From a virus (taxonomy: Duplodnaviria; Caudoviricetes), in the IMG/VR virus record IMGVR_UViG_2639762716_000004, positions 100,522 through 164,521 of that record: DNA of 64,000 nucleotides; one strand, written 5' to 3'. Under the pieces are notes generated by a model. The model worked only from the letters and a program-made list of their open reading frames with translations, searched no databases and was not told where the DNA came from. A program made the position numbers and the translations under genes. Below are positions 1,594-63,497 of this stretch, piece after piece. How positions within the stretch are numbered: the first letter of the stretch is position 1; the number at the start of each line of letters is the position of its first letter.

Positions 1594-1714
1594 TACAAAT
1601 TGAAAATTTTTTTAGATAAAATGACAGTTTTATTTGAAACAATCGAGCTACAACACACAGCTCGATATTAGCCAATTTAATCCCAACCTTATCACGGCTC
1701 TCCTTCTCCGTAGT

Positions 1715-2380
1715 TTATTTGTTTGAAATTGATATCGTAAACAATAAACCTAATTTTTCACTAGAATAATTAAATGAATATCTTAATTTACCATAAGTTT
1801 CTGATTCAACTTTGGATGATTTAACTTCATGCTCATTTATTACATTATTCACGTCCAATTTATTGTATATCATACTCGTTATTTCATTCGTTGTCATATA
1901 TGGATTAAATACTTTCACTATAACCCCAACAACCTGAAGATAACTTTTAAGGTTGTCGCCTTCTAATTCATCTTTTGTCACTAATATTAATTCTGCAATT
2001 TTATTAGTATCCTTTTCAAATCCACCTACCAATATCAAATTATTATTAAACTCATAAGAAAAATTATTCAATTTATCTCCATCACTATATTCAAGACTTA
2101 TTGATTTACCATTTTCGCCTAAAAGCTTCTTCGCTTCTTTATTAAAGCGCTGTTCAAATTCATCAGGCGTCATCCCAATTTCATCCTGTCCGATTGTTTC
2201 AGATTCGCTTGAAGAAACACTTTGTACATCATTTGAGTTCTCTTCAGATGTGTTCTCAGAAGAAGCATTATCATCAGCAGATTCTTTGTCAGTATTATGT
2301 AAGACATTATAGATGATAATCCCCCCTCCTAATACTACAATTACCCCTAAAACGGATAAATACTTAACTAATGGTCTCAT
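1715..2380 (-). CDS. Membrane-anchored exported protein
   Basis: N-terminal TM segment, S/E/N-rich linker, globular C-domain; RBS GGAGG. Confidence 0.75.
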   Translation of the reverse strand: MRPLVKYLSVLGVIVVLGGGIIIYNVLHNTDKESADDNASSENTSEENSNDVQSVSSSESETIGQDEIGMTPDEFEQRFNKEAKKLLGENGKSISLEYSDGDKLNNFSYEFNNNLILVGGFEKDTNKIAELILVTKDELEGDNLKSYLQVVGVIVKVFNPYMTTNEITSMIYNKLDVNNVINEHEVKSSKVESETYGKLRYSFNYSSEKLGLLFTISISNK

Positions 2381-2580
2381 GACTTTCCTCCTTAACTTAT
2401 CACAAGACCATTATACTACATATTCTGCACATTTTTACTAATCAGGCGATTTTGTCTTCCTTCAATTAAGTTGTTTACGGATCGTCGATGCAGTTTTTCC
2501 TTAAGAGCATTAAAATGGCACTGAGACTTTTGCAGTCTTTATTAAAGATGAACATTCACGTATAATATTCATAAAAAGGA

Positions 2581-2976
2581 ATGAAAGGATATTTTATGAA
2601 TGTAATCAAAAAGATTGTTGTAGGATTTTTTATCTTCCATTTTACTTTTTTGTCTTTGATTTATTTGAATCTTTACCGTCTTGGTCAAGCTGATCTATGG
2701 ATTAGTACTGGTTCTTTCAATTACTTAGCAATCGTATTGTCTTATATTCCAATATTGGCATTAATCGAGTATTTCATCTTTTATTTCGTTTTAAAGCTCA
2801 TTAATTTAAAATTCTCAGTTAGAGTAACCTTAGTTGCATTATTAACGACCTTGGTCAATAGCTCGATTCTCTATTTTCAATCAAAAGAAATTTTAATTGC
2901 AGGCATGACAGCAATAAGCACTTTACTAATGAGCCTAATTTTACCTTTTATAAAGACGAAACGCACTGACTCTTAA
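2581..2976 (+). CDS. Small integral membrane protein (~4 TM)
   Basis: Highly hydrophobic 131 aa; convergent with the secreted DUF3238-like gene. Confidence 0.7.
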   Translation: MKGYFMNVIKKIVVGFFIFHFTFLSLIYLNLYRLGQADLWISTGSFNYLAIVLSYIPILALIEYFIFYFVLKLINLKFSVRVTLVALLTTLVNSSILYFQSKEILIAGMTAISTLLMSLILPFIKTKRTDS

Positions 2977-2994
2977 AAAGCCAGTGCGTTTTTA
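2958..2994. terminator. Bidirectional intrinsic terminator
   Basis: AAACGCACTG...CAGTGCGTTT stem between convergent genes, T-tract on the plus side. Confidence 0.65.
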
Positions 2995-2999
2995 ATGTT

Positions 3000-4358
3000 T
3001 TATATGCTTACATTTATACGAGCATTAGGCATTGGTGGCGCAAGATATTCAAAGCCCTTATTGTTTGCTTTAAATAGCGGAACCATTGCATCAGAATACG
3101 GAATATAGGCGTACATTTCATGGCTTGGCGCCTGGTCTCTGCTTCCGGTTGCCGTTAACCGGCCATTTTTATAGACTACTACGCCTACAGTATAAGTTAT
3201 ACCGGGAGTAACCCAACCAAAATCATTAAAAGCTACTTTGGCATTATGATTAATAAGAAAGTAATTCTGGCTCTTGTTTTTATTTCCTTGCTGTAAAGTG
3301 ATATCCTTAGACGAGGCTCGCTTTTGTTTTTTGAATTTTCCGTTTTTATCATATAATTTTGTCAAACCAACATGCTTCCTAAAGTATGTTGTTGATCCAC
3401 TTGATGTAAATCTAGCTACTGCCTCAACTTGAGTGCGATGAGATCCACCCGAAAAACTAAAAGATCTGTTATCACCACCAAATTTATCACTCCCAACAAG
3501 CCCACTCCAAATCGATTTAGCAGGTACAAGTTTGTCAGGAATAAAAGTTCTATACATTATACCTGTCTGGTTGGGATGTGGGCCAACTGGAGGTTCCCAA
3601 GCTAGGCTATTCACTTTTTCATTCTGCTCAGGAATCTTAATCGCTTTAATGTATTCATGTGGTCTAAAATAATAATCTTTCATTTGATCAAATCTGATTG
3701 TTTCCCCTCTTTTTTCAAACTCCTTGTTCACCTGTTCAATTTCAGATTCACTTAATTTTTCTAAAGCAACAAATTTATAAACATAAATTTCCCCAGGTTT
3801 AACATCTTCATCTACGAATGTCTCTTCAGCGTCATCGTCTAAGAGTTTTTCATCTTTGTATACTTCAAGTTTTCCATCAAAATCATCTTGGACATTTCCT
3901 CTTAATTTTAAAGTCAGCACATTATCATTAATCGTACTGTCTATGTACCCATCAGACTGTAATGGATTAGGCGCTTCTTCATCAGAGACATTTTTAATCG
4001 CTGCTTGCTTTTCTGGCAATGTCCTAGTATCAACATTAATCGTGTCCACTTTCTTACCAGCTTTATATGCTACAATATCATATTTTTGTGGACTAGACGG
4101 AGACAAGTCTTTTTGAATATAGTTCGACTCAGTTCCCTTCCATACCAGCTTACCTTCAGAATAAACTTCATACCTATCCCCAACATCATTCCAATCCAAC
4201 ATTACTTCCTTTGATTTTGGATTAATCTCCGTTTCTAGTTCTTCTCCTTTTGCCTGAGCAATTGGTGCTGTAAAAATGAGCGACATTGAAGCAAGAGTAA
4301 TCAATACCTTTTTATTCAAACAATCCCCTCCTTTGACATTACTACTATAAATTAACAT
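3000..4358 (-). CDS. Secreted protein, FN3-like N-region plus C-terminal DUF3238-like domain (true start probably TTG ~4319)
   Basis: Signal peptide (KKVLITLASMSLIFTAPIAQA); motifs YRTFIP, FGGDNRSF and APSHEMY typical of DUF3238. Confidence 0.65.
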   Translation of the reverse strand: MLIYSSNVKGGDCLNKKVLITLASMSLIFTAPIAQAKGEELETEINPKSKEVMLDWNDVGDRYEVYSEGKLVWKGTESNYIQKDLSPSSPQKYDIVAYKAGKKVDTINVDTRTLPEKQAAIKNVSDEEAPNPLQSDGYIDSTINDNVLTLKLRGNVQDDFDGKLEVYKDEKLLDDDAEETFVDEDVKPGEIYVYKFVALEKLSESEIEQVNKEFEKRGETIRFDQMKDYYFRPHEYIKAIKIPEQNEKVNSLAWEPPVGPHPNQTGIMYRTFIPDKLVPAKSIWSGLVGSDKFGGDNRSFSFSGGSHRTQVEAVARFTSSGSTTYFRKHVGLTKLYDKNGKFKKQKRASSKDITLQQGNKNKSQNYFLINHNAKVAFNDFGWVTPGITYTVGVVVYKNGRLTATGSRDQAPSHEMYAYIPYSDAMVPLFKANNKGFEYLAPPMPNARINVSI

Positions 4359-4493
4359 ACGAACAACCCAAAAACAACTATTTTTTTGTTTTTTTGGATA
4401 TTGACATCCATTTATATATGTTTATTTCCAAAGATGTTTAAATGAAAAAAGGATCTAAAAAGATCCTTTCTTTGGAATTTTATTATTCTCCTA

Positions 4494-4748
4494 TCAAAAT
4501 TCCTCTTCATACAAGGCTTTCTCTAAACAATCCAGTTCCTCAAGCTCACACTGTATCTTTCCTAATTTACATTTAACCTTTTCAAGGTTGTCATTTTCTA
4601 ATTGCAGTAAATCTGTCAGACGTCTAATCTTAGCCTCAATGTTTGCTTTTTGAGTGAGTAAGGAATTTTGTTGCTGCAGTAATTGCTTTCTAACCAATTC
4701 AATTGTTTCTTCTGTACATTGTCCTCCGCATAGTTGTTCTACTGACAT
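4494..4748 (-). CDS. Coiled-coil hypothetical protein
   Basis: 84 aa with heptad pattern, RBS AAGGAG. Confidence 0.6.
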   Translation of the reverse strand: MSVEQLCGGQCTEETIELVRKQLLQQQNSLLTQKANIEAKIRRLTDLLQLENDNLEKVKCKLGKIQCELEELDCLEKALYEEEF

Positions 4749-4807
4749 ATTACTTCTCCTTTTTTATTTTTAATTGGTTTATGAATCCTATAAAAGATTG
4801 TTTTTAT

Positions 4808-5062
4808 TCAAAAGTTGTGTGATAATTTCCACCCCACCTCGCAATAACATTCACTTTCTAGTTCACCGCATCCCTCGCAAAACTTTTCTATTTCAAACCC
4901 AATAAATTCATATTTTGGGTTCGCATAATATCCCTTTCCGCACCAAGAACAATACACATAGTCATCACCATCCCAGTTGGCTCGTTCATCCGATTTCTCG
5001 TGTTCGCAGTAAGGACAAATTTGTTCTTTCGAATATTCACTCATTATTCTGCCGCCTCCCAT
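4808..5062 (-). CDS. Small zinc-ribbon protein (start probably ~5044)
   Basis: Three CxxC pairs (CPYC, CSWC, CEGC). Confidence 0.6.
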   Translation of the reverse strand: MGGGRIMSEYSKEQICPYCEHEKSDERANWDGDDYVYCSWCGKGYYANPKYEFIGFEIEKFCEGCGELESECYCEVGWKLSHNF

Positions 5063-5256
5063 CCGATCTTTTCCTTGTACTCTGCTGCCGTACCCTCCAT
5101 AACGAATGAATCGCCATTTTTGAACGATACTTCGCAGCCTTCTTCTGTGTCGGTAATGCTTTTGATATCGTCATATTTGAAATGGTAAAACGGCGTTAGC
5201 TCTCCGTTTTTAAGTTGTCGGTAGATCACAAATTCCTTAAATATTGGATTACTCAT
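5044..5256 (-). CDS. Hypothetical phage protein
   Basis: 70 aa, translationally coupled to its neighbours. Confidence 0.6.
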   Translation of the reverse strand: MSNPIFKEFVIYRQLKNGELTPFYHFKYDDIKSITDTEEGCEVSFKNGDSFVMEGTAAEYKEKIGWEAAE

Positions 5257-5684
5257 TCCGCCGCCTCCAATAGATCAGGATTTCGGTATACGTCGCCGAT
5301 GACTTCATAATCTTCTTCGCAGTAATTTATATCCCCGATCCAGCAAATACCTTTCCCGTTTTCTTCCGCTGTATAATCTGAATAATAACGGCTATTAATA
5401 TTCTCCAAAGTAAATGATCCATCCCGAAATCCGACTGAAGCAGTAAAGTGTTCTTCTATTTCGTTTCCATCAAAGAACCAGTGAACACAATGAATAATAT
5501 CCCCCTCGTAAATCTCCCGGCCGTTTTTGTCCTTTAATCCGGTGTATTGCATAATATTTTCGAAAAATCCCGTTATATCCGCATTCCCGTAATATAATTT
5601 TCCATCAAAACCAACTGCATTTAAAGGGCTGTAATCCATTTTTTTAAGTGGAGCATTCCACGCCCGGAATTTAATTTCTCTCAT
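5253..5684 (-). CDS. YopX-family protein
   Basis: MREIKFRAW...MQYTGLKDKNGREIYEGDI...EVIGDVYRNPDLL signature. Confidence 0.9.
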   Translation of the reverse strand: MREIKFRAWNAPLKKMDYSPLNAVGFDGKLYYGNADITGFFENIMQYTGLKDKNGREIYEGDIIHCVHWFFDGNEIEEHFTASVGFRDGSFTLENINSRYYSDYTAEENGKGICWIGDINYCEEDYEVIGDVYRNPDLLEAAE

Positions 5685-5823
5685 CCGTTCTACCTCCCGT
5701 CATCTTGTAACCATTGTTCGATCTGTTTTTCCCTGTATCCGGCCTGCAGCAGAATCGACAGCAGCGCTTTGACTTCTTTCATAAACGTCTATATATCATT
5801 TTAATTTGTATAAAATTTCTGTT

Positions 5824-6186
5824 TTATCTAATTTTCAGTGCTTTTAATGCCGCTAAGCATGTTGCTTTCTCTGGCTTTTCTGCCCAAGCTTCATACTCAT
5901 CAAAAGAAGCACACCAATCTTCCAGACCGATAAAATCGTGTTCTCTTGATAAATAAAAATTCAGTCCATAATCTTTTTGTAGCTTCTCAACCACCTGTAA
6001 TGCTAAACTCATTTCTCCTGCAAAATTTTTAAGATTAACCACTTTCCCATCATTATCAAAAGCCAATTCATCGGCCACAATATCCCCTAAAAACTCAAAA
6101 CATTCATCTGGAGTGATTTTCTTCTTCTTGTAACCGTTGAATAATCGGTCTTGAATCAATTCATTAATTACAGCATTACTTCTCAT
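5824..6186 (-). CDS. Phage ABA-sandwich (BC1872-like) domain protein
   Basis: ALQVVEKL...WCASF...[13 protein letters not shown] pattern. Confidence 0.6.
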
Positions 6187-6407
6187 CTAATCCCTCTTCT
6201 CAATTTGTTTTTATCCATCACATCAACAACAAAAGCTTCAAATTCCTCATCCCAATACGGTTCTGTTCTTGCTATGTATTTCTTAAAAACTCCATCTTCC
6301 TCTATCATAAACGTCTGGCCGCGCTCTATTTCAGTGAATTTCTTCTTTGTCCAGATTCCCCTAATCAATACTTTCACATCTTTGAGCTGCACTGTTGCTT
6401 GGTGCAT
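6183..6407 (-). CDS. Hypothetical phage protein
   Basis: 74 aa, RBS AAGGAGG. Confidence 0.65.
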
Positions 6408-6499
6408 TACATCCCTCCTTTTAATCCATTAAGTACCATCAGCATTTTACTTTAAATAACATCTCCCCTTAGATAAGATATTTAAATGGAGGTGGTTTT

Positions 6500-7312
6500 T
6501 TGTTTATAGCTCCAATGCTGCTTGATTCAGCCAAAGAGCCCTTTGATGATGAAGACTACATTACTGAGCTTAAATTTGATGGAATACGAATCATCCTATC
6601 TAAGCAAGATGGTAAGATTAAGCTCTACACGCGCCATAATAATGAAGTCACAAATAAATTCCCTGAGCTGCATGATATTGATATTCCCGAAGGGACAGTC
6701 TTAGATGGGGAAATTATCGTTACTAATTCAGATGGGTTACCCGATTTTGAATCTGTTATGGAACGTTTTCAATCAAGCAAATCTTCTCATCAAATTGTTT
6801 ATTGTGTGTTTGATGTCATAAGACTAAATGAAATTTCAATAGCTTCAGAGCCACTTGTTAAACGCAAGGAATTCCTAAGATCGCTAAACCTTAACCATCC
6901 GAATGTCTTCACTGTTGAAGGAATTCAAGGTAAAGGCAAAGCTTATTTTGAAATGGCCAAAGAAAAGAATCTTGAAGGAATCGTACTTAAGAAAGCAAAT
7001 TCCCCTTACGAGATCAACAATAGATCAGTAAACTGGATCAAGATTATAAATTATCAGTACACTGACGTGCTTATTACTGGATACACTAAGGAGGATATCA
7101 AGTTTTTTCTAAGTTATCCTGACGGTTTAGCTGCCGGATTCATGGAATTTATGCCATTCGATGAGCGCAAATACTTCCATTCTATCAAGCAAATAGAATA
7201 TGAAACTGATGATTATGTATTCATTAAGCCTTTATTATGTAATGTGAAGCACCGTTTTAAGACTAAAAATGGCAAGCTTCGTATCCCCTCATTTAATTCT
7301 TGGAGAGATTAA
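6500..7312 (+). CDS. ligB: ATP-dependent DNA ligase (SPbeta LigB/YoqV-like)
   Basis: Motif I ELKFDGIR, LDGE, VFDV, EGIVLK; 270 aa. Confidence 0.93.
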   Translation: MFIAPMLLDSAKEPFDDEDYITELKFDGIRIILSKQDGKIKLYTRHNNEVTNKFPELHDIDIPEGTVLDGEIIVTNSDGLPDFESVMERFQSSKSSHQIVYCVFDVIRLNEISIASEPLVKRKEFLRSLNLNHPNVFTVEGIQGKGKAYFEMAKEKNLEGIVLKKANSPYEINNRSVNWIKIINYQYTDVLITGYTKEDIKFFLSYPDGLAAGFMEFMPFDERKYFHSIKQIEYETDDYVFIKPLLCNVKHRFKTKNGKLRIPSFNSWRD

Positions 7313-7378
7313 TGCTCTCCATTACATAAACCTCTTGCTACAATCCATCCTCCATTTCCTAAGTGAAAATTTAATACA

Positions 7379-7582
7379 TTATTCAATTAGTTTTTGTTTT
7401 CTCATCCACTTTTGAGTTTCTTCATCTCTCCCCAACGCCATGTCTACTGCTTCTTCTATCTCTGTTACATTATTCATATCTACTCCGTGTCTACGTGCTC
7501 TGTTGCAAATCCATTCAATCTGTTGTATGGCTGTAATATAATCATGCATCCTTTGTTCTTTTGATCGTTGATTTGGTAACAA
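7379..7582 (-). CDS. Hypothetical phage protein
   Basis: 67 aa, RBS GGAGGG. Confidence 0.55.
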   Translation of the reverse strand: MLPNQRSKEQRMHDYITAIQQIEWICNRARRHGVDMNNVTEIEEAVDMALGRDEETQKWMRKQKLIE

Positions 7583-7647
7583 TACTACCCTCCCCTATCT
7601 CACCTTTTCCAATAAAATAACTATTTAACTAGAACGTAAGAGGTATT

Positions 7648-7676
7648 TAGACTAATTGATTAAAATATGGTACATT
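7648..7676 (+). promoter_or_regulatory. sigmaA promoter (extended -10) for the putative rod-shaped RNA
   Basis: TAGACT-17nt-TACATT with TG at -15/-14; predicted start ~7683. Confidence 0.6.
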
Positions 7677-7683
7677 ATGTACA

Positions 7684-7896
7684 AGCTCAAATATTCAAGG
7701 CTGCTCCTACACCCAAAACAAACCAGCTTTAAAATTCACTTTTTTGACATTCTTAATCTTAGCAACAAATTTTTTAACTGGGGCTGATTTTATGTATTTG
7801 ACAAACCACTCTTTAGAACTTATGAGTAATGTATCTACAGTTGTTGATTTTGCTGGTATTGTAGATGCGGTGGGCTCTGCCTTGAGTATTTGAGCT
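7684..7896 (+). ncRNA. Putative ~213-nt rod-like structured RNA (6S-like architecture)
   Basis: 18-bp closing stem 7684-7701/7879-7896 plus further nested stems; begins at the predicted TSS. Confidence 0.55.
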
Positions 7897-7906
7897 AAAA
7901 CCATAT

Positions 7907-8434
7907 TTATTTGGTTTTAATTGAATCCCAATCAAACGTCTCTAATATTTTCATTAAGCGCTCAACTTTTGGTGCTCTCCAAGCTGTCATAGCGTATGTA
8001 TGTACCTTTTTAGTGTAATGGTGTCGATTTCTTTTGATATGTTCTTTTGCTTCTTTTTTTGTCAGAAACATAGTGTTAGGAACAATAAATGATTCTTCTA
8101 TTTCAAAAATCGGAAAAGTTTCATCATTAACATTTTGAGCTATCCATTCCAGCATTTCGCTTTCATCATCCAGGTCATAGAGTTCTCTAAGCTCTTCAAG
8201 CATTTCCTCTGCGTACATGTTGTATTTATCATCGAGAATATCTTCAGCATATTCGCTTAACTCATAACATTCGGCTTCATCGGAAGAATAAATGCTTACC
8301 CTTTCATGTTCTCCCTCTGTGGTTTCTCTCCACCTGTAGTCCATCAATGCCCAAAAACGAGGTGCTGCCTGGCAATCTGTGTCTTGTGTTCGTAGTTCTT
8401 CCTGCAGCTCCTTTAAAAATTGAATATCCTTCAT
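7907..8434 (-). CDS. Hypothetical phage protein
   Basis: 175 aa, acidic middle, C-terminal HTYAMTAWRAP. Confidence 0.75.
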   Translation of the reverse strand: MKDIQFLKELQEELRTQDTDCQAAPRFWALMDYRWRETTEGEHERVSIYSSDEAECYELSEYAEDILDDKYNMYAEEMLEELRELYDLDDESEMLEWIAQNVNDETFPIFEIEESFIVPNTMFLTKKEAKEHIKRNRHHYTKKVHTYAMTAWRAPKVERLMKILETFDWDSIKTK

Positions 8435-8475
8435 TAATTTTCCCCTTTTAATTACTTTCAGATAAAAACATGCTT

Positions 8476-8879
8476 TTATCTAAACTCCAATGGTTCATTT
8501 AATTCATGTGCTAGTCTGCAGCCAGCAATAAACTGTTTTGTACACACTATGTATCCACCATCACGTAATATATGACCATGAGACATTTCTTTTTTCGCTA
8601 ACTCTTCTACATATGGCAAGATGGCTTCTAATTCATCCGCAACAATTTTACACATTTCAGGACTAATTTCACCATCACAATCTGAATGACCGAAAAACGC
8701 AGTTAGCCCCTTATGCGTTTTTGTGGAATAACCATCACCAAAATACCAATAGCCATCCTTTAATTTTTTATCATCGTGAGGCGGCCAACTACCTCCAATT
8801 GATCTTAATAAAAACCTTCTAAGATTATTAAACGCGAGTATGCCCCACTGAAGGCGCCATGTGTTACATCTAAACCCAT
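8476..8879 (-). pseudogene. Frameshifted phage gene (MGLDVTHGAFSGAYS//AFNNLRRF...)
   Basis: Strong RBS GGAGGAGG before ATG 8879; that frame stops after 24 aa while the body (GHSDCDGEISPE motif) is in another frame; one base is missing near 8835. Confidence 0.6.
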
Positions 8880-8934
8880 ATAATCCTCCTCCCACTCGAT
8901 GAAGTAATCTTTTAATTTGTTTAAAATGACGATT

Positions 8935-9744
8935 TTATTGACTTTTCAGCTCCACACTTATGTTGAGGTTATTTGCAATTCGTTTGCCTACCTCATTAGA
9001 TACTGTTTGAGACACTCTTTCTTTAAAGCCGTAGAGCAACCTTCCTCCATCTCCAAATCCCTCTTCTATAAGTGAGTCAATTTTTGAACTTATAAATGAC
9101 TGAAATTCCCCTGACTCTGCTGCTTTTTTAACTTCATTTGATACTGCAATACGAATCATTTCTTGAATGTCATCTTTCGTTATACCTAATTCATTATGTA
9201 TAAAGTTTTTTACTTCTTTGTATCCCCTTTTCTTATCTTTGAATTCTTGATATTCATTTTCTTTAGGCAATGGAACAAGGACACGGTAACATCCGTGTGA
9301 AAATCCGCATGTAATCTCCCCGTCTGAATCTTCGTATTCGATTACGTCAATCATGCCAACGCCCACATCAGTGACCTCCGTTACCGTTCCTTCCGATTTA
9401 CCGTCGTTCATATGAATAACCTTCTCGCCTACTTCCGCCTTGCGGTCGACCATTTCGTAGCGCTCTCCGTCAATGTGGACGACGTTGGTCGGTTCGAGTG
9501 TACGGTATTCATAATTACCAACAAGGTGACCGCATTCTGTTGCTACGCCACTACCATAACCCGTGTAGAGCTCGACCGTAAATACATCCCCATTTGAATA
9601 ATGATCTCCATAACCTGGGTCAGCATCGACAATTACGATCTTCTCGCCCAATTTCGCCTTCCTATTGACCTCTACATACTCACGTTTGATTCCCCCAAGT
9701 GATTCGTCAGAAAATACATGAGTTTTTTCGTTAGTTCTCGTCAC
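8935..9744 (-). CDS. Hypothetical protein with tandem SH3-like repeats
   Basis: Two repeats of YxxVxRKAxxGEK(I/V); RBS GGAGG. Confidence 0.75.
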   Translation of the reverse strand: MTRTNEKTHVFSDESLGGIKREYVEVNRKAKLGEKIVIVDADPGYGDHYSNGDVFTVELYTGYGSGVATECGHLVGNYEYRTLEPTNVVHIDGERYEMVDRKAEVGEKVIHMNDGKSEGTVTEVTDVGVGMIDVIEYEDSDGEITCGFSHGCYRVLVPLPKENEYQEFKDKKRGYKEVKNFIHNELGITKDDIQEMIRIAVSNEVKKAAESGEFQSFISSKIDSLIEEGFGDGGRLLYGFKERVSQTVSNEVGKRIANNLNISVELKSQ

Positions 9745-9757
9745 TTATTCATCCTCC

Positions 9758-9997
9758 CTATTCCTTATCATAAATTCCGGAGTCTCCAAGTTCATATGCT
9801 ATTCTTTCAATCAATTCAGTAACGTTTTGTCCTTCTAAGATATCACTTATGTTTTTCAATGCGATCTTGTATTGTACAGCCTTTTCAACCTGCTCGATAA
9901 GCCATTCCATATCATCGCGCTCGATTTCATCTTCATTAAATCGTTCTTTGATTTCTCTTAACTTGTCCATATTCGTTCTCCTCCCTATTTCTGTCAC
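9758..9997 (-). CDS. Hypothetical phage protein (start probably MDKL)
   Basis: RBS GGAGG before the internal ATG. Confidence 0.6.
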   Translation of the reverse strand: MTEIGRRTNMDKLREIKERFNEDEIERDDMEWLIEQVEKAVQYKIALKNISDILEGQNVTELIERIAYELGDSGIYDKE

Positions 9998-10209
9998 TGT
10001 TTAAACGAACTGCACATTAAAAATCTTCTTCTTCAAAAATTAAACTGTCAATCATTGTTCCGCATTCTTTGCATTCATAAATCCCTTGATTCCAGTGCTC
10101 CATTTCTTCACCACAAGCAGTACAAAAAAATTCACGCATAATTTTTCATTCCTTCACATTTAATGTCTACCCTCTATCATTTAAACAGCCGCTCTGGGTA
10201 CTTCCCGGC

Positions 10210-10446
10210 CTATTCCGTAAATCCTTCACTTTTCCACCCGCACTTACAATGGAACTCCCAGTAAGTTGTATTGCCCTCTTTCTCCTTTTGAAGCATCCTG
10301 CCTGTTGCTACCGAACGAACATAAATTATAGACATGTTGCCGACTTCCTTAATTCTTTTGTTGCCGCATTCAGGGCATTCTGTGTAATTCATTTCACTTC
10401 TCCTTCCGGCTCCGGCCGCTGATTTGTGTAAGTGCGAATTAATCAA
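10210..10446 (-). CDS. Zinc-ribbon protein (start probably MNYTEC)
   Basis: CPEC...CKCG. Confidence 0.6.
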   Translation of the reverse strand: MINSHLHKSAAGAGRRSEMNYTECPECGNKRIKEVGNMSIIYVRSVATGRMLQKEKEGNTTYWEFHCKCGWKSEGFTE

Positions 10447-10603
10447 TATGCTGTTTTAATTAAGCTTTTTATAAAAATAAAAGTATCTAAACCCTGATAC
10501 TTCTATTTTCATTTTGTCTTTATCCCCTAAACGTTTACACATATCACACTTAATTTTAATACTCTTTTCTCCTTGTCTCTTTCGCTGTTTTGGCGAGACT
10601 ACA

Positions 10604-11046: not shown

Positions 11047-11212
11047 TGTCCCTCCCCTTGGATTCTATATAATCTTTCCAGCTGCAATTCTCAAATACTT
11101 TGATATCTGCTTTCAAATGCCATTTAAACCAGACTAAGTTGAACCAGGCTGTTTCAAATATGTATTTGATGTAACCGATACTTTCATCTCCTCTCTGGAT
11201 AAAATAATCCTT

Positions 11213-11503
11213 TTATTTTAATTCCAATCGTTTAATTAGTTCTGGAGCAATACACGCGGCTAATGACTCTTCATATGTAACCGGGTTTCTCTTTATAGGG
11301 ATATTTCTGATGTGGTTCTTAGCAGCATGTATAAGTGCTTCATCATTTAGTTTGGGATAAAGTGCTTCAAATCCATCAGAATTTGCCCTGGTATTCTTAT
11401 ATCGTTCTAGAGTTACACTGCCTTCTTCAAGTGAATTTACATCAACTCTTTCCCCATTGATTTCAACATGAACCTCATCGCAGCTCTTATTTTTAAAATT
11501 CAC
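11213..11503 (-). CDS. Hypothetical phage protein
   Basis: 96 aa, RBS AAGGGGG; flanked by palindromic sites at 11199 and 11522. Confidence 0.65.
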   Translation of the reverse strand: MNFKNKSCDEVHVEINGERVDVNSLEEGSVTLERYKNTRANSDGFEALYPKLNDEALIHAAKNHIRNIPIKRNPVTYEESLAACIAPELIKRLELK

Positions 11504-11546
11504 GTGCTTTCCCCCTTTTCTTTAAAACAGTCTTTTTATTTTAATT

Positions 11547-12185: not shown

Positions 12186-12220
12186 TGATCACCTCCTGTA
12201 TTTCATTTAAAACTTCAATT

Positions 12221-12517
12221 TTATTTGATTTCACGCTCATGTATTGTAAAGAGGACAAATGGACAATCATTAAAGTATGAACCCCTTTCAGATTCTTGCA
12301 CTTTAGTCGTCTGATAAAGTTCTTTAAACCTCTTTACTTCCTCATCGTTACGCAATTTAAGTTCAAAGAGAGGCATCCCTACAACGCTCACTCTTGTGTT
12401 CCCAGACCATCCCTCTTGTTCCAGTCGCTTGATTGTTTCCCACATCTCATCCAAGGAATTATGAAACACTTCTATAACCATCTTTTTGGTTTGTTTTTTA
12501 ATAAACATCCTAACCAT
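12221..12517 (-). CDS. Hypothetical phage protein
   Basis: 98 aa ORF in operon. Confidence 0.65.
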   Translation of the reverse strand: MVRMFIKKQTKKMVIEVFHNSLDEMWETIKRLEQEGWSGNTRVSVVGMPLFELKLRNDEEVKRFKELYQTTKVQESERGSYFNDCPFVLFTIHEREIK

Positions 12518-12536
12518 CCTTTTAATTATTTTGAAA

Positions 12537-12809: not shown

Positions 12810-12812
12810 ACA

Positions 12813-13894: not shown

Positions 13895-13962
13895 GAATCA
13901 TACTCCCTTTTTAATTTGTTTAAAATACATCTTTTATTTAAAACGATGATTCAATCATACTT

Positions 13963-14202
13963 TTAATTAACTTTAGATTTCTTCATTATCACAAAATATT
14001 CGAATCGACTTGAATATGTACGTTTATTGCAGTTATGTAGTACTGTTTCTACACATCTTTTTGAAATACGTTGAGCGCACTCCCATCCTACTGCCTCTTT
14101 TTCTCTAATTCTTTTTAATAAGCTAATTTTATTGTAATCTTTCATAAAAATTTTCGTTGGGTATGCTGCAATCATTCTCTTCCCTCTCCTCAAGTAGTTC
14201 AT
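13963..14202 (-). CDS. Hypothetical phage protein
   Basis: Basic ORF overlapping the upstream gene. Confidence 0.5.
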   Translation of the reverse strand: MNYLRRGKRMIAAYPTKIFMKDYNKISLLKRIREKEAVGWECAQRISKRCVETVLHNCNKRTYSSRFEYFVIMKKSKVN

Positions 14203-14359: not shown

Positions 14360-14474
14360 CCTTATTATACTTTTAATTTGTTTATATTGTATTATACAGA
14401 AAATGTTTAGTCAATAGGGATTTGAAAAGTCATTAAATTTATTTACTTTCATCCATCCCTATTGACATTGACTG

Positions 14475-14669: not shown

Positions 14670-14682
14670 TTCAGTTGTCCTT

Positions 14683-14961: not shown

Positions 14962-14985
14962 TTCCCCTATATAATGAATTTCCGG

Positions 14986-15337: not shown

Positions 15338-15342
15338 TTTCA

Positions 15343-17798: not shown

Positions 17799-18899
17799 TT
17801 ATAATGGTTTAACCGCGAAAAAATGTAATGCCTTTCTTAAAGTTTGTTTATCACACTGCTCAAAAAAACGTAAGAATTCTTCTTTTGTAATGTCTTTCAA
17901 AATTGATACATCTAATTCTTCATCCATTATAATACCTGCAGTCTGTGAAATGTCTTTATTATCATTTAAATAACGTAGTGTTGTGTCGAATCTGCTGTGG
18001 TCTGCTTGCTTCATTGCAGCTCTATAATCTTTCCCTGTCGCCTCAAATACTTCAGTTATTCCCACACCCCTAAATGAATGAGGCACTATACCTTTTTCTT
18101 CTGGTATTCCAAGTCTTTTTAATGCACGCTTTAGAGATTCTCTAAAAGCGTCTTCAGAAAGTCCTTCAAACACTCTGTCAGTGTCTTTTGTTTCTTCGCT
18201 CCTTAATGCAAGTAACTGTTCATAGAACACTCTGTGTATACCTGTAGTACGCAATTTCGCCCCCTTGTCAATGACAGTGACTCTAAACCAATCTGGGTTT
18301 TCAGCAGAAACCTCAAAATCACACCATCTAACGTACAGGGCAGCCGATATTCTGAAAGATGATCTAAGCAAAAAACCTCCGAACAATTTTTTTAAAAGTG
18401 GTTTTTGCTTTTCATAAATGAACATATTTTCACAGATCATCTCTGCTTGAATTTGGGAAGTGTTTGCCCTAGTTCTCTTTATTTCAGGACTTCTTTTAAT
18501 TTTATAGAAAGCATCATCGTCTACAAATTCAGGATACAGTCTCTTGAGTTCCGAGTGAAGCGATTTCAATGCCGCGATCTTTCGATTAATTGTTGTGTTA
18601 GCTAATCCCTTCTGTGCAAGATGGTGTTTAAATGCCAAAACATCTGACCTTTTAAAAGACAGATGCTCCTCTTTTAAAAATTCAATTTCAGTTTTACAAT
18701 AAAATCTAAAGAACTGCTTTATATCACCTAAATAATTTATTGCTGTGTTTGATTGAAGTCCATACTTGGATTTTTTCTTTTGTTTTCTGTCAAATCCTTT
18801 AACATTCCCGGCCAAGCTTTCGGTGTCTTTCTCTCTTAAATAGGTTAAAATATCATTAAAGACCGAGTATTCCCGGATAGGCTTAACTTCAGCACCCAT
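17799..18899 (-). CDS. yopP: Tyrosine recombinase-family protein SroD
   Basis: Full catalytic set: SSFR, DKG, HSFR, DH...RY; synteny. Confidence 0.85.
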   Translation of the reverse strand: MGAEVKPIREYSVFNDILTYLREKDTESLAGNVKGFDRKQKKKSKYGLQSNTAINYLGDIKQFFRFYCKTEIEFLKEEHLSFKRSDVLAFKHHLAQKGLANTTINRKIAALKSLHSELKRLYPEFVDDDAFYKIKRSPEIKRTRANTSQIQAEMICENMFIYEKQKPLLKKLFGGFLLRSSFRISAALYVRWCDFEVSAENPDWFRVTVIDKGAKLRTTGIHRVFYEQLLALRSEETKDTDRVFEGLSEDAFRESLKRALKRLGIPEEKGIVPHSFRGVGITEVFEATGKDYRAAMKQADHSRFDTTLRYLNDNKDISQTAGIIMDEELDVSILKDITKEEFLRFFEQCDKQTLRKALHFFAVKPL

Positions 18900-21400: not shown

Positions 21401-21443
21401 GAAACACCTCCAAATGACTTTAAAACAATTATTTTATTAAAAG

Positions 21444-23135: not shown

Positions 23136-23236
23136 TAGTAATTAAAACGTTGTTTTTATTCATTTCATTGCATTCAAATATAAGTTAAGGTATTCTTCCT
23201 CTGGAGTTTCCCCCTTACCTTCTAATGAACTTGAAC

Positions 23237-24153: not shown

Positions 24154-24204
24154 CCGCTCTTCTTCCGCTGCTCTGTTATGTTAAAATGCTTCTTTTATTT
24201 AAAG

Positions 24205-24935: not shown

Positions 24936-24979
24936 AAGTGCTCCCCTCTCTATGTATTAAATCAAATGAAAGACTGGTT

Positions 24980-25444
24980 TTAATCAAAAAATTCATCATC
25001 AATAAAATCATTTTCTCTTGCAAGTTTTCTCGGAGATTTATTGAATAAAAGTTGTTTTAATTTTTCAAACGCTGTAAGCTTTTTGTTTTTGTCTTGACAG
25101 ATATGGCATACATAATCGCCGTTATCTGAAAGGTATACTAGTAGTTTAGTTACTCCTGATCTTTTACAAATACACATTCTATGCTGGCCATCACTAAAGG
25201 AAATATGCCCACAAGCATTTATGCTTGCAAATATCCCAGAGTGTTTTTTATGCATATCAGGTTTTATATAGTGTGCTGCCAATCTTCTACACCGAAGTGC
25301 ATATTCGTATTCTTTTCCTTCTAAAGATTTAAATTCCTCATCACTAAGATCCAAAGAACATCTACCTGTACGAACTTTATAACAGTCTCTTTCACTTAAT
25401 CTAAAATAAAATGAATGTTTCGTTGGATTTATAAGCTGATCCAA
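24980..25444 (-). CDS. ParB/Srx-like domain protein
   Basis: FSDGQHR motif, Cys-rich. Confidence 0.55.
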   Translation of the reverse strand: MDQLINPTKHSFYFRLSERDCYKVRTGRCSLDLSDEEFKSLEGKEYEYALRCRRLAAHYIKPDMHKKHSGIFASINACGHISFSDGQHRMCICKRSGVTKLLVYLSDNGDYVCHICQDKNKKLTAFEKLKQLLFNKSPRKLARENDFIDDEFFD

Positions 25445-25482
25445 GGATATCCCCCCTTTTTGTCATAAAAGTATGATTTCAT

Positions 25483-26109: not shown

Positions 26110-26398
26110 CTCTTATACAACTTTACTTTGACTATTTAAAAAAGTCAATCAAAATTTTCCTATTTAAGAAAATGCCCGCGATTTTTCAAGTTGGCTGTTA
26201 TATCGTTTCCGCAAAAATTGCCCGCAACTTTTTACCGCTGCTGTTATACTGTTTTAATTTTTTTAGTGAGCTATGTGGCATCTTAAAAAATCCATTTGTG
26301 TATCAAAATTTTGCCCGCAATAAAGGATAAGAGCTGTTATACGCTTTATAAAGGGTATCCCTTTTTAGTTGCTTTAAACTCTTTTTAAAATGGTGTTT

Positions 26399-26692
26399 TT
26401 ATTCAATTCTGCCACCTTTCTTTTTTGCTTTTCTTAGAACAACACGATCACCATTTTCGTCAATAATAGTACGGCCGTGTAAATGTGGTTCAAGATCAAC
26501 CTTATAAACGATTTTCGTTTTTTGTTTGTTAACTTTTTTAGCTTTATCAGCAGACACTTTTATCCTTTCACTAACCTGCTTAAATTGTTCTTTCGCCTCT
26601 GGGGTCTCTAAAGCTCCAAAGAACTCATCAGCAAACTCATCTCCCAAAGACTCCGTCAACCGTTTCTTAAATTCTTCTTTATCCTTATCCAA
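26399..26692 (-). CDS. Hypothetical protein
   Basis: 97 aa, RBS GGGAGGG. Confidence 0.65.
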   Translation of the reverse strand: MDKDKEEFKKRLTESLGDEFADEFFGALETPEAKEQFKQVSERIKVSADKAKKVNKQKTKIVYKVDLEPHLHGRTIIDENGDRVVLRKAKKKGGRIE

Positions 26693-27170: not shown

Positions 27171-27407
27171 TCATATTTGGCTCTCCCTTTCTGCTTTCAT
27201 TTGCTCTATCCAACAGAAAACCTTGTCCCCTACTTCTGTATCATTCCATCCCCATTGTTCAGCAAGGAATTTAATTTCTGCGGGCAAAGTCTTAGCAATA
27301 ATTTTTAATTCCATTTTATTTGGAACTCTTCCATAAACACTTACAAAACAATCATGTATATGATCAAGCAATTTTACTGAACCCCTTTTTATTTGTTTAA
27401 AACTCAT
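27171..27407 (-). CDS. Hypothetical protein
   Basis: LAEQWGWNDTEV motif; start probably at an internal GTG. Confidence 0.6.
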   Translation of the reverse strand: MSFKQIKRGSVKLLDHIHDCFVSVYGRVPNKMELKIIAKTLPAEIKFLAEQWGWNDTEVGDKVFCWIEQMKAERESQI

Positions 27408-27415
27408 GTTTTATT

Positions 27416-27715: not shown

Positions 27716-27748
27716 TTTGCTCTCTCCATTCAGTTTAAAATTGTTGTT

Positions 27749-28018
27749 TTATGCAATCTGAATCACATGTGAAATGCAATCAAGTCCTTCAAACTCTATA
27801 ACGGTCATAACTGTTTCAGTGTAATAAATGCCCTTAACCAGTTCATGGATTTCAATACCTCTAGATGACAAATAATCTAAGGCATTACCACTTCTATTGT
27901 TCAATGAAAATACAATTCCGTTTGCACATTCGAACCGTTTTGGATTTGTTGAAATCTTACCTCTCAAAATTTCCTCAATGGTTTTTAAATCTAAATGTCT
28001 CATGTTTAACCGCTCCAT
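27749..28018 (-). CDS. Hypothetical protein
   Basis: 89 aa. Confidence 0.55.
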   Translation of the reverse strand: MERLNMRHLDLKTIEEILRGKISTNPKRFECANGIVFSLNNRSGNALDYLSSRGIEIHELVKGIYYTETVMTVIEFEGLDCISHVIQIA

Positions 28019-46885: not shown

Positions 46886-47010
46886 ATAAATCTTTAATTT
46901 TATTTAAAAACACCTTTTTAGAACGCCCAGTGTGATTGAGGTTTCTCCCATCCTCCCTATTGCTGGGCGTTTTATAAAACGTGTTTAACTTAAGTATTGG
47001 AGGTGAATTA

Positions 47011-58773: not shown

Positions 58774-58861
58774 AGCGAGACAAATGAGGGGACTTCTCCC
58801 CTCTCCTTTTTTATTTAAATAAAATACAAGTTTTATACAAATCAATGTAAGGAGGCTGTAG

Positions 58862-59227
58862 ATGTCAGTTTGCGATTATAAGAAATTGCCTCGAAAAATT
58901 GAACCCTTAGTTACCCCCTTCACCTTTCACGATTCCGTCACTGAAGCCGGGGAAGGAGAAAAATTCATTGTTGGGTCACATCGAACACTAACAGTAGAGA
59001 TTACAGGTGACTGCACTTCAAGAGAAGTTAAGTTTTATGCTGTCACTCAAGATGCGAAAAAGATCACTCTTGAAGGAATAAACTCTTCTAATCACATGTT
59101 TGGAGCAAGTACACTCGGCATTGATGAGATTTGGGAATTCGATATTGCTGGGAAAACCGCAATTCTATTTGAAGTAACAAAGATTAATGGTGGTTCAATT
59201 ACCATCAAAGGAAATGCGGTGACATAA
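58862..59227 (+). CDS. yomS: YomS-like virion protein
   Basis: 121 aa, synteny. Confidence 0.6.
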   Translation: MSVCDYKKLPRKIEPLVTPFTFHDSVTEAGEGEKFIVGSHRTLTVEITGDCTSREVKFYAVTQDAKKITLEGINSSNHMFGASTLGIDEIWEFDIAGKTAILFEVTKINGGSITIKGNAVT

Positions 59228-59229
59228 CG

Positions 59230-61403: not shown

Positions 61404-61438
61404 GAGGTGTTTTTATTTTGGATTTAAAAGGAGGAAGC

Positions 61439-61924
61439 ATGATGACAACGCAAAAATTAACGCTCAGTCATATTAAAGAGGATAATAAAAAATACAATGA
61501 GAAGCAAAGAATTGAATTGAATGATCAATTTCACACTTATATTTATCCGAATTTCGATCCAACAAGAGTAAACAAAATGATCAAAACTCTTATTAAAGAC
61601 TATGTTGAGATTCAGTCGGAAAAAGGAGTCAAGACTGACTTAGGCGCTGGAGATTTAGCTTATCTCTATACGGTTATTGAATTTAGTGATATTTGTGATA
61701 TGCCTAAAACCTTGACATCTAAAGTTAAAATGCTTGAAGAAGTTGCTAAATCAGAGCATATCAGAACTATTCATGATTCATTCCCTGAAGAAAGTTTAAA
61801 AAAAGTTGAAGATGCTGCTAATGGTTTTGTTGATTTTATATCAAGAGCAGCAGATAAAAATGCAGACAAAATAAATGAAGATATCTTAAAAAAAGTTGAA
61901 GAGCTTACTCAAGAGGACAGATAA
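61439..61924 (+). CDS. yomO: Putative tail assembly chaperone
   Basis: RBS AAGGAGG before ATG 61439; synteny. Confidence 0.65.
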   Translation: MMTTQKLTLSHIKEDNKKYNEKQRIELNDQFHTYIYPNFDPTRVNKMIKTLIKDYVEIQSEKGVKTDLGAGDLAYLYTVIEFSDICDMPKTLTSKVKMLEEVAKSEHIRTIHDSFPEESLKKVEDAANGFVDFISRAADKNADKINEDILKKVEELTQEDR

Positions 61925-62343
61925 TGGCGGCTTACAAAGATCTCGCCATTTTAGTTCAGAAAGAAGCTTTAAAGGCCATCCAACAGTCAAATAGCAGCAC
62001 AAAGCAAACGTTAATTAAAACTGGAGAAGATCATGTTGAAACAGATGTTTATGACGCATATGATCCCCTAGTTTATGAACGGACGCATGAGTTAAAGAGC
62101 TCTTTTGTAACTGAGAATGAAGTAAACGGAATCTCATTGGATAACATTTGTGAAGATGATGGCCGTGATGTTGCAACGATTGTTGAAACTGGGCAAGGTT
62201 ATCAGTTCCCTGATGAACATGGTTATGGATATGGAAAACCAAGACCTTTCATGGCTAATACTGCTGAATCTTTAAAGGATGGCCGCTTAGTTGAAGCTGT
62301 GTCCAGAGATGTGAACAGGCTCGGACATAAGACAATAAAATAG
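61924..62343 (+). CDS. yomN: HK97-gp10-like tail completion protein
   Basis: YERTHELKSS...VETGQGY...PRPFM. Confidence 0.65.
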   Translation: MAAYKDLAILVQKEALKAIQQSNSSTKQTLIKTGEDHVETDVYDAYDPLVYERTHELKSSFVTENEVNGISLDNICEDDGRDVATIVETGQGYQFPDEHGYGYGKPRPFMANTAESLKDGRLVEAVSRDVNRLGHKTIK

Positions 62344-62357
62344 TCGGTGGTGGATTA

Positions 62358-63359
62358 ATGGCGAAAGAAATCAAAAAAAATATGATACGCCCCCGTGCAA
62401 AGAAACTGCCTGAAGTTACTGATGAAATGTGGTCTCAGGTTGATGAAGAGCACAGAAATTTAACACAAGAATTTTTAGACGCTCACTCATTCCGTGATAA
62501 AACAAGAAAACAGTACACCTCCTCCCTTCGGCAATTCTTCTGGTGGGTGCATAATTCTCTCAATGGGAAGAAATTATACAAAATCACTAAACGTGACTTC
62601 ATTAGGTATCAAAGTTTCCTAAAAAATAGGGGCATGTCTTCTAGTGGTATTGCGCTTAAAAAAGCTGGTGTTTCTTCTTTAAACAACTATATTGAAAACG
62701 TCGTGGCTGAAGATGATGACAATTATAAAACATTCAGGAACTTTACTCGTGGCCTCCCTGCTATTCCTAAGACAGTCACTTACGATAAAGTAAAGATTAC
62801 ATATGAAGACTATCAAACAATGATGCAAACACTTGAAGAAGATGAGAACTATTTAGGAATGGCCTGGCTTGCAACGGCTTTTAATGTAGGAGCAAGAAGA
62901 GCAGAAATCATTCAATTTAAAACAGAAATTTTAGACTACCCTATCCCTGAAGGGCAATCATATGTAATGTCCCATCAAGTCTTCGGAAAAGGTGGCGGTG
63001 AAGGAAAAGCTCTAAAATATATGATCAATACAGAAGCTCTACAATATTTGAAGTTATGGCATGAAAAACGTGGATATGACCACGAATACCTCTTTACCAC
63101 TACATATGGTGGACAACCAAAACAAATGTCAGAAACATGGGCTGATTATTTTTGCTCCGATGTTTTATCAGACATTCTTGGCCGTAGAATCAACCCTCAC
63201 CTTTTTAAAGCTTCCTGTATCACCTACTTACTCGAAGTCAAGAAAATCAAACTTGAACTTGTCAGTAAACACATTGCTCAACACGAAGATGTCTCAACCA
63301 CAGTCAAACATTATGATCTTCGTGATTTTAAAGAAGAAAAGAACCAGATTTTCATGTAA
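62358..63359 (+). CDS. yomM: Tyrosine recombinase inside the late operon
   Basis: GARRAE (R), GKG (K), PHLFK (HxxK), QH...HY. Confidence 0.88.
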   Translation: MAKEIKKNMIRPRAKKLPEVTDEMWSQVDEEHRNLTQEFLDAHSFRDKTRKQYTSSLRQFFWWVHNSLNGKKLYKITKRDFIRYQSFLKNRGMSSSGIALKKAGVSSLNNYIENVVAEDDDNYKTFRNFTRGLPAIPKTVTYDKVKITYEDYQTMMQTLEEDENYLGMAWLATAFNVGARRAEIIQFKTEILDYPIPEGQSYVMSHQVFGKGGGEGKALKYMINTEALQYLKLWHEKRGYDHEYLFTTTYGGQPKQMSETWADYFCSDVLSDILGRRINPHLFKASCITYLLEVKKIKLELVSKHIAQHEDVSTTVKHYDLRDFKEEKNQIFM

Positions 63360-63497
63360 AATCCCTCTTTTATTCAAAATCAAATTCCCTCTCTTGAGGG
63401 GTTTTGCTTTTGAGTGAAATGAAATTTTTGCAAAAAAGAAGGTATTTCCTCCTATTCTGTCGAATTGTAGTTATGTATTCAATTAAGGATGGGAGTA

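Follow-up and report, generated by a model that had tools for sequence, protein, structure and literature searches.

A 6-bp-spaced palindrome at accessory-gene boundaries of an SPbeta-like Bacillus prophage marks preferred junctions of gene exchange

We analysed a stretch of 64,000 nucleotides (the window; positions are window positions unless another sequence is named) that forms the last 64 kb of the 164.5-kb virus record IMGVR_UViG_2639762716_000004, and describe a short palindrome, WTAAAA-N6-TTTTAW, that recurs at the boundaries of its accessory genes. The first ~89 kb of the record have a host-like G+C content of 0.43–0.48 and the remainder one of ~0.32–0.38. The window is an SPbeta-like Bacillus prophage, with an early/accessory cluster of minus-strand genes up to ~36.6 kb and, from ~36.8 kb, a structural cluster of genes that lie mainly on the plus strand and whose products share 43–92% identity with SPbeta proteins by BLASTP. 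Pfam searches of the window identified an MrpR/YopR-like repressor (15343–16356) and a DndB/YopQ-like protein (16365–17741), and BLASTP against the open reading frames (ORFs) of SPbeta placed an AimR-like protein (38% identity) at 19871–21082. The window also encodes a YomM-like and a YopP-like protein, which are listed together with the palindromes in Table 1.

A first-pass annotation of this DNA, made from the letters alone, had listed 16 exact copies of the palindrome and five near-matches, and had proposed that they delimit an integron-like array of mobile gene cassettes. All 16 exact copies were found at the positions and with the spacers it had listed, and each of the five near-matches carried one arm mismatch; a weight-matrix scan of the window added one further near-match, at 14115. 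The 16 places correspond to 22 strand-matches, six of them having fully palindromic arms that match on both strands, and none of 100 dinucleotide shuffles of the window reached 22 (mean 0.58, maximum 6). When the spacer length was varied, the window gave 16 matches at N6, a single one at N4, none at N0–N3, N5 or N7–N10, and SPbeta gave 33 at N6 versus 0–2 at the other lengths from N0 to N10, bearing out the expectation that enrichment would be specific to a 6-bp spacer. Five matches at N11 in the window are read as the same N6 sites, entered from a TTAAA in the left flank, and neither everted nor direct arrangements of the arms were enriched in the spacer scan.

Chance, in the form of A/T runs and stop codons, might be invoked as the origin of the motif, since the intergenic DNA of the window is AT-rich (69% A+T) and the arm of the motif includes a TAA. 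Two null models confined to intergenic DNA nevertheless expected 0.07 and 0.17 sites and never gave more than 2 in 1000 trials, and the seven sites that lie wholly within intergenic segments are all at N6. We consider this explanation ruled out, its likelihood being negligible, by the N6 specificity, by the intergenic-only nulls and by the control-level counts in two AT-rich Bacillus phages of the Herelleviridae (see below). A scan of the pattern across the whole collection returned single chance matches among the matches listed.

The sites were claimed to sit between genes, and with a crude gene model any overlap with a coding sequence was limited, in 14 of the 16 exact sites, to the stop codon and no more than one sense base, while the other two (1616 and 27397) overlapped short doubtful ORFs only and sat between listed ORFs. 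All 12 ORF ends that had been named as lying at a site were recovered, including those at 63359 and 46885. Considering 20 sites, exact and near, the upstream stop codon ended no more than 8 bases ahead of the site or 3 bases inside it in 14, the stop was a TAA within the arm in 8, and the next start codon lay 19–31 bases past the site in 11. Exceptions occurred elsewhere, sites being found also after terminators and between divergent genes (SPbeta 57147). The head and tail genes had been described as free of internal sites, which agrees with our result: that region contains 58819 and the near-matches 46886, 46904 and 63356, all of them between ORFs. Head-to-tail doubles do exist, at 46886/46904 and at 13920/13938 (the copy at 13938 having two mismatches), although their interpretation as empty cassette slots could not be upheld, as doubles with a gap of zero are too rare to argue from, with three among the SPbeta-like sequences (the window, L010 and L107). 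As a separate observation, at SPbeta 111028 and phi3T 101606 the palindrome and then a ribosome-binding site lie within the annotated yorM frame; therefore, the annotated start of yorM may be too far upstream.

To define the site, a logo was built from 120 distinct instances, read on the coding strand, from the window, SPbeta and ten IMG/VR loci. Beyond the 18-mer, position 23 was A and position 22 a purine (A or G) in 114 instances each, position 21 was A in 84, and the upstream mirror positions −5 to −3 read T, then T or C, then T. These mirrored outer positions extend the element to a 28-bp palindrome, TYTnnATAAAA-N6-TTTTAWnnARA, with two 11-bp half-sites around a 6-bp spacer whose letters carry little information, and they are followed by a purine-rich ribosome-binding signal at positions 27–35. 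The predicted RNA fold was weak, with a mean minimum free energy of −0.25 kcal/mol for the 18-mer and −1.34 kcal/mol for the 28-mer, 5 of 15 28-mers remaining unfolded, and the arm mismatches of the near-matches were not compensated in the opposite arm. Because of the 28-bp symmetry, the negligible hairpin and the uncompensated arm mismatches, the sequence data support well a function of the motif as a duplex-DNA site of SPbeta-like phages, presumably one for a symmetric protein that is probably phage-encoded.

These data also bear on the possibility that the palindrome is an RNA element, which once transcribed would work between cistrons, as a hairpin or as a binding site for a protein, and control mRNA processing, mRNA stability or translation of the next gene. 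Such a role would suit the location of the element, with a stop codon on one side and the following ribosome-binding site on the other, the orientation with transcription and a TGAAA...TTTCA variant found in three distant proviruses (G005, G011 and G012), which changes both arms as a base pair would. The mean hairpin energy of the 18-mer, arms that are fixed within a genome and show no covariation, near-match changes without compensation, symmetric outer positions that stretch the palindrome to 28 bp, and sites that follow terminators or separate divergent genes all argue against it, and we regard it as very unlikely.

Within one genome, whether the window or SPbeta, all spacers differ, and across SPbeta and loci L006–L012 the spacers recur in a shared order, one shared run reading TTAACT, TGTAAG, GATGCA, GTAAAA, TTGAAG, AGACTG, ..., GATAGT, TATTTA/TAGTTA, ACGATA, GTAATT. 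A spacer in this order can be viewed as the address of a junction. The addresses TTGAAG and AGACTG are present in both the window and SPbeta (Table 1), and between them lie one 212-aa gene in the window and yoqH plus yoqI in SPbeta. Around AGACTG we found three versions of the left flank and at least five of the right one, in many combinations, with similarity ending at the edges of the 18-mer. To evaluate this for all sites, 100-bp flanks were compared by gapped local alignment with a threshold above every null score. Among 356 cross-genome pairs of sites with the same spacer, neither flank was homologous in 159, one in 140 and both in 57, so that 299 of 356 lose flank homology at the site, although these counts are inflated by related loci (L006–L012 are alike) and do not represent independent events. 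Only 4 of 1376 different-spacer pairs, a 15% subsample, shared a flank. Same-spacer partners exist for 10 of the 15 early-region sites of the window, and of the 36 pairs that result, 33 lose homology at the site. Conversely, where a flank was shared the spacer was identical in 197 of 258 pairs; it was identical in 73 of 87 pairs sharing the upstream flank and in 67 of 107 sharing the downstream flank, a weak hint that the site may go with its upstream gene. Taken together, the comparisons give a new result, namely that each junction keeps its own 6-bp spacer across phages, in a conserved order, while the adjacent genes are replaced.

The prediction that breakpoints between related phages fall at the sites was evaluated by asking which junctions have the edge of a BLAST block no more than 14 bp away. 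In the window, such edges were found at 7 of 13 junctions with a site and at 5 of 38 without; the corresponding figures were 7 of 16 and 8 of 73 for SPbeta, 8 of 8 and 7 of 30 for L009, and 8 of 8 and 10 of 25 for L007. Window positions 1–20000 could be viewed independently, at the level of contigs only, in four public runs that belong to four studies. In the DNA runs X4 and X7, which come from two studies, 11541–12200, a segment between two sites, was replaced by 425 letters; two DNA runs also had 8938–10600 replaced by 441 letters and 4817–5254 by 531, and 603 letters inserted beside the site at 5810. Contigs of the RNA-library run X3, whose presence over the early region does not imply expression, jumped between sites (4811>5810, 4808>5791 and 11222>11519). 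In total, 8 of the 15 listed joints had an end within ~12 bp of a site. A further insertion/deletion (indel) was seen in L014, which lacks the 801-bp SPbeta unit 87598–88399, the yoqG-like flank joining the AGACTG site directly. Thus, the prediction holds in so far as breakpoints are commoner at sites than at site-less junctions and site-to-site indels occur, while many breakpoints lie elsewhere, and on this sequence comparison it is well supported that the sites act as preferred, not obligatory, junctions for exchange. Apart from these comparisons, position 5499 is an end point of several contig joints, and the 186-bp stretch 5499–5684 shares 92–98% identity with YopX-family genes of unrelated Herelleviridae Bacillus phages, e.g. 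SIOphi.

The palindrome proved to be widespread among SPbeta relatives, with ~20–60 copies in an SPbeta-like genome, almost all of them intergenic. SPbeta carries 33 sites, and the 16-base core occurs 30 times in phi3T and 37 times in BUCT082; the ten SPbeta-like IMG/VR loci each have 4–11 sites in 10–21 kb, and the two SPbeta-like sequences with 37 and 30 sites (W03 and W04) encode a YomM at 86% identity. In contrast, the Herelleviridae W01 and W02, AT-rich B. subtilis phages of ~150 kb, have one site each, which equals the control, and no YomM match. A host regulon was considered and rejected: in the host genome G006 (B. rugosus), 27 of 52 distinct sites fall within 109 kb of a prophage contig, and outside the prophage the chromosome is at about control level. 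Distant proviruses that share only a YomM homologue, at 58–69% identity, carry the motif as well, and in 10 of 10 distant YomM-bearing records scanned whole the core matches (TAAAA or TGAAA arms, N6) exceeded the control or the expectation. The TAAAA form was found 45 times in G002 (control 1), 13 in G003 (control 0), 57 in G008 (control 3), 50 in G009 (control 1), 61 in G010 (control 4) and, by the core, 19 in G001 (2.1 expected), with a modest excess in G004 (7, control 2). The symmetric arm variant TGAAA-N6-TTTCA was present in 14, 8 and 7 copies in G005, G011 and G012, respectively, versus 0–1.2 expected or in the control, and coexists with the TAAAA form in G011 and G012. The arm variant did not track the YomM clade, no clean covariation being seen, since G008–G010, with similar YomM identity, use TAAAA. 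The 18-mer at window 58819 recurs identically in the distant provirus G002, which may be due to chance, a rough estimate giving ~0.7 expected occurrences.

Both YopP-like and YomM-like proteins gave generic Phage_integrase and SAM-like domains in Pfam. The window YomM is 86% identical to that of SPbeta, while its neighbours are 29–56% identical, and among SPbeta proteins YomM ranks first in conservation in provirus G005 (60%) and, ribonucleotide reductase aside, in G001 (67%); the family comprises 758 hits at 62–80% identity across Bacillales genera. By comparison, the lysis–lysogeny (sro) module at 15343–21082 on the minus strand is a divergent allele in the window, with YopR at 38%, YopQ at 42%, YopP at 42% and AimR at 38% identity to SPbeta, while the arms of the sites are identical. 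The catalytic set of tyrosine recombinases consists of Arg, Lys, His, Arg, His/Trp and Tyr, and in an alignment of 16 YomM members R180, K211, H281, K284, H309 and Y319 were invariant in all 16, as was a C-terminal Y-D-L-R-x-F tail; the first Arg aligns with the Cre Arg, the other catalytic residues being assigned by motif reading. A structural model of YomM (pLDDT 77) matched XerA, Cre, the Tn1549 integrase, XerH and lambda Int in Foldseek, each with a probability of 1.00. In YopP-like proteins box II reads H-S-F-R in the window and H-S-F-K in SPbeta. Because YomM is conserved at 86% and YopP at 42% with respect to SPbeta, we infer that YomM is the most likely catalyst at the sites, as a candidate, and that YopP is a weaker one.

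The core sites of dif/XerCD and lox/Cre consist of inverted arms of ~11–13 bp around a spacer of 6–8 bp, and exchange is expected only between sites with the same spacer; lox sites that differ in their spacers serve for cassette exchange. The palindrome reproduces this layout, as had been anticipated, in its strict N6 spacing and symmetric 11-bp half-sites, and two tyrosine-recombinase-fold genes, YomM-like and YopP-like, are present in the window. It differs from dif and lox in that a single genome holds dozens of sites with individual spacers, that indels join sites with different spacers and that YomM has a Lys at a catalytic position. We tentatively favour a reading, which we hold to be somewhat short of an even prospect, in which the sites would be recombination linkers to which a tyrosine recombinase of the phage binds, YomM being the candidate. 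Exchange would take place inside the site, mostly between same-spacer copies of two related phages or prophages, and the predicted catalyst would be YomM (62358–63359), a conserved orphan recombinase; same-spacer exchange would swap gene cassettes while keeping gene order, and a rarer exchange between neighbouring sites would add or remove a gene unit together with one site.

Several observations weigh against this assignment. Short-homology recombination at a conserved island of 18–28 bp would give the same comparative pattern, and the non-independence of the same-spacer pairs limits what their counts can say. At 7 of the 15 listed joints there was no site end, and the non-site ends had no site-like sequence nearby; the block edges at 5 of 38 site-less window junctions likewise arose away from a palindrome, and a published replacement, the phi3T 's' fragment (101,429–102,694), is not bounded by the palindrome. 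Differing spacers of neighbouring sites block the classical excision of a cassette circle by a tyrosine recombinase, and yet site-to-site indels between different spacers exist. YomM itself has a Lys where the second catalytic Arg stands, H-x-x-K for H-x-x-R, in 16 of 16 members, and its gene, which in SPbeta lies within the late cluster, is probably expressed late. The link between YomM and the sites is circumstantial, coming from co-occurrence and conservation, which are both confounded by shared ancestry. Finally, the near-fixed place of the sites just upstream of ribosome-binding sites, and their highest density in the early region, fit a role in gene expression.

These last features lead to an explanation that we take as a serious possibility, though one that would more probably prove wrong than right, in which the palindrome would be the operator of a dimeric phage regulator and the mosaic edges a by-product of short-homology recombination at the shared 18–28 bp. 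These recur at syntenic junctions and would offer general or phage-encoded homologous recombination its sole stretch of common sequence. The regulator could be an HTH (helix-turn-helix) protein, YopQ (which is ParB/DndB-like) or a factor for late shut-off, and control of early genes could proceed by blocking RNA polymerase or by silencing along long operons. The site is symmetric and phage-specific, as an operator would be, and it lies directly upstream of ribosome-binding sites in long operons with few terminators; laboratory phi3Ts–SPbeta hybrids, moreover, were joined at homology in 15 of 16 sites (Dragos et al.). Set against this, no promoter lies at a fixed distance from the site, and the regulators of the sro module have diverged to 38–42% identity between the window and SPbeta while the arms are identical. 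Eighteen base pairs is also very short for homologous exchange. A promoter as such was also considered and rejected: the logo had no conserved −35/−10 elements at a fixed distance and was flat upstream from −30 to −9, and sigma-A-like matches numbered 62 versus 80.7 in shuffles, fewer than by composition, with 9 terminator-like sites versus 7.5. In the YonO promoter region upstream of yonK no exact site was found between SPbeta 57147 and 69423.

Among known elements, SPBRE resembles the palindrome as a repeated intergenic element of SPbeta-like phages. It is the operator of MrpR/YopR/SroF, the master repressor of SPbeta, a protein with a tyrosine-recombinase fold (Kohm et al. 2023, PMC10516654), and it sometimes lies within 50–150 bp of a palindrome. 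The two were nevertheless found to be distinct. A 15-mer of the AAAAAATATGTATAT kind is common to the upstream regions of ten MrpR targets, the phi3T SroF box is described as a 26-bp asymmetric element bound by a monomer (bioRxiv 2025.11.27.690993; Chmielowska et al. 2025), and chromatin affinity purification sequencing (ChAP-seq) of MrpR in SPbeta gave 10 peaks (PMC10516654), not 33, the number of palindromes; the AAAAAATATGTATAT-type shared sequence, the asymmetry of the phi3T box and the peak number together rule out the palindrome as SPBRE, and the peak number also counts against the operator reading. Only three of the 33 SPbeta palindromes are found upstream of an MrpR-bound gene at a distance of up to 150 bp, a further mark of the difference from SPBRE. 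That 3 of 10 MrpR-bound promoters have a palindrome so near nevertheless suggests regulatory neighbourhoods and favours an operator. At SPbeta 76170, 99497 and 129296, palindromes occur ~10–50 bp from an SPBRE-like box at the aimR, yorE and yosX promoters, where the two elements may act together. A full-text literature search surfaced no description of the palindrome or of YomM, although the original 1999 description of SPBRE, which lay outside the search, could mention the palindrome.

The PeSL (promoter-early stem-loop) of T4-type phages, which consists of a sigma-70-like promoter and a terminator hairpin (Arbiol et al. 2010, PMC2839356), offers a precedent for regulatory motifs that can mediate shuffling and in that respect supports an operator. 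Like the palindrome, it is a short, conserved intergenic motif in many copies in variable early regions that flanks small accessory ORFs, and both elements bound insertions, deletions and replacements between related phages. The palindrome differs in its strict 6+6+6 (28-bp) architecture with a position-specific, conserved spacer, and in having no sigma-A promoter and no stable hairpin.

The integron-like system of the first-pass annotation, in which a gene and its site would be excised as a circle by a phage recombinase and then reinserted, was not supported. There is a likeness, since small co-directional genes are separated by repeats with inverted ends and a variable middle, indels comprise genes plus one site, and abutting doubles resemble empty slots; the commoner spacer identity with a shared upstream than downstream flank would also agree with it, weakly. 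The sites are, however, duplex palindromes of 18–28 bp with almost no hairpin stability, unlike the folded attC, and their addresses are positional, not cassette-borne, as in 159 of the 356 same-spacer pairs both flanks changed at a kept address. Neighbouring spacers differ, many breakpoints lie off-site, doubles are rare and no circle junction was found among the 15 listed joints, which were seen in contigs only. We therefore consider an integron-like mechanism hardly likely. At the level of pattern, by contrast, an array of exchanged cassettes is supported, because breakpoints concentrate at N6-specific sites on accessory-gene boundaries and addresses are conserved while the genes between them are replaced.

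A more specific form of the recombinase reading, which we regard as rather unlikely, would be a natural system of addressed cassette exchange, in which a Cre-like YomM with an Arg-to-Lys change recombines only 28-bp sites that have the same spacer. Each large temperate phage of the Bacillales would then carry 20–60 uniquely addressed sites, and co-resident relatives could therefore swap single genes precisely, with the order undisturbed. The same sites could circularise permuted, terminally redundant genomes after injection.

Further observations concern the remainder of the window and the record. The plus-strand gene 38983–41757 encodes a 924-aa protein without a Pfam match that shares only 25% identity (E 2e-29) with YonO, the RNA polymerase of SPbeta, and the YonO homologues of the distant proviruses G001 and G005 are 44–50% identical to SPbeta YonO. 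The accessory genes include a GIY-YIG endonuclease-like gene (31963–32814) and a subtilase-family peptidase gene (35645–36646), both on the minus strand. Upstream of the window, at ~54.7–64.2 kb of the same record, a low-GC island (0.34) with masked runs of N on both sides lies within the host-like part and contains three exact sites (58628, 59857 and 62887), one of them with the full downstream extension of the prophage type; this island may be a second SPbeta-like fragment.

Table 1. Palindromes and candidate site-binding proteins in the window. Spacers are given on the coding strand; X3, X4 and X7 are public runs
Feature	Position	Strand	Spacer	Remarks
Exact site	1616..1633	−	CTGTCA	Between ORFs 1201–1533 and 1715–2380
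Exact site	4790..4807	−	ACAATC	Abuts stop of ORF 4808–5062; joint 4816>5255 in X4, X7
Exact site	5810..5827	−	CAGAAA	Arm holds stop of ORF 5824–6186; 603-nt insertion adjoins (X4, X7); spacer also in L004, L005 and L007, flanks different
Exact site	8462..8479	−	GCATGT	Arm holds stop of ORF 8476–8895; BLAST block edges at 8462
Exact site	8921..8938	−	TCGTCA	Arm holds stop of ORF 8935–9744; joint 8937>10601; flanks differ in L004 and L005
Exact site	11199..11216	−	GGATTA	Joint 11222>11519 to next site in X3
Exact site	11522..11539	−	AGACTG	Address of SPbeta 88399; homology lost on at least one flank in 11 of 12 same-spacer partners
Exact site	12207..12224	−	TTGAAG	Address of SPbeta 87598; with 11522 boxes the 212-aa gene 11547–12185
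Exact site	13920..13937	−	GATGTA	Degenerate copy 13938–13955 (2 arm mismatches) abuts upstream
Near-match	14115..14132	−		1 arm mismatch; weight matrix
Exact site	21420..21437	−	TAATTG	
Exact site	23142..23159	−	ACAACG	
Exact site	24181..24198	−	GAAGCA	
Near-match	24966..24983	−		1 arm mismatch
Near-match	25465..25482	−		1 arm mismatch
Exact site	26385..26402	−	ACACCA	Arm holds stop of ORF 26399–26692
Exact site	27397..27414	−	CATGAG	
Exact site	27735..27752	−	CAACAA	Arm holds stop of ORF 27749–28018
Double near-match	46886..46921	+		46886 and 46904, 1 mismatch each; terminator-like hairpin follows
Exact site	58819..58836	+	TACAAG	Late region; terminator-like hairpin before; ribosome-binding site and ORF 58862–59227 after
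Near-match	63356..63373	+	TCCCTC	Over stop of YomM-like gene; GAGGGA on other strand; spacer common to SPbeta 39885, phi3T 29375 and BUCT082 27282
YomM-like protein	62358..63359	+		Tyrosine-recombinase fold, 333 aa; candidate binder
YopP (SroD)-like protein	17799..18899	−		Xer-type integrase, 366 aa; second candidate binder

It has long been asked how large phages can exchange single genes with clean boundaries, and 'linker' sequences are a notion of the modular theory of phage evolution. In SPbeta, a model temperate phage, the sites provide a concrete and countable feature (33 copies) at the points of exchange; their position-specific spacers are kept across species, they co-occur with a very conserved recombinase, YomM, and the question can be tested in Bacillus subtilis 168. 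If the palindrome is an operator instead, it would define a hitherto unrecognised regulon, with ~30 early junctions, in a phage that is a current subject of work on gene regulation. If a recombinase acts at the sites, phages would have a new route for exchanging cargo (genes for defence and counter-defence, for example), and the sites would form a natural set of recombination targets that exclude one another.

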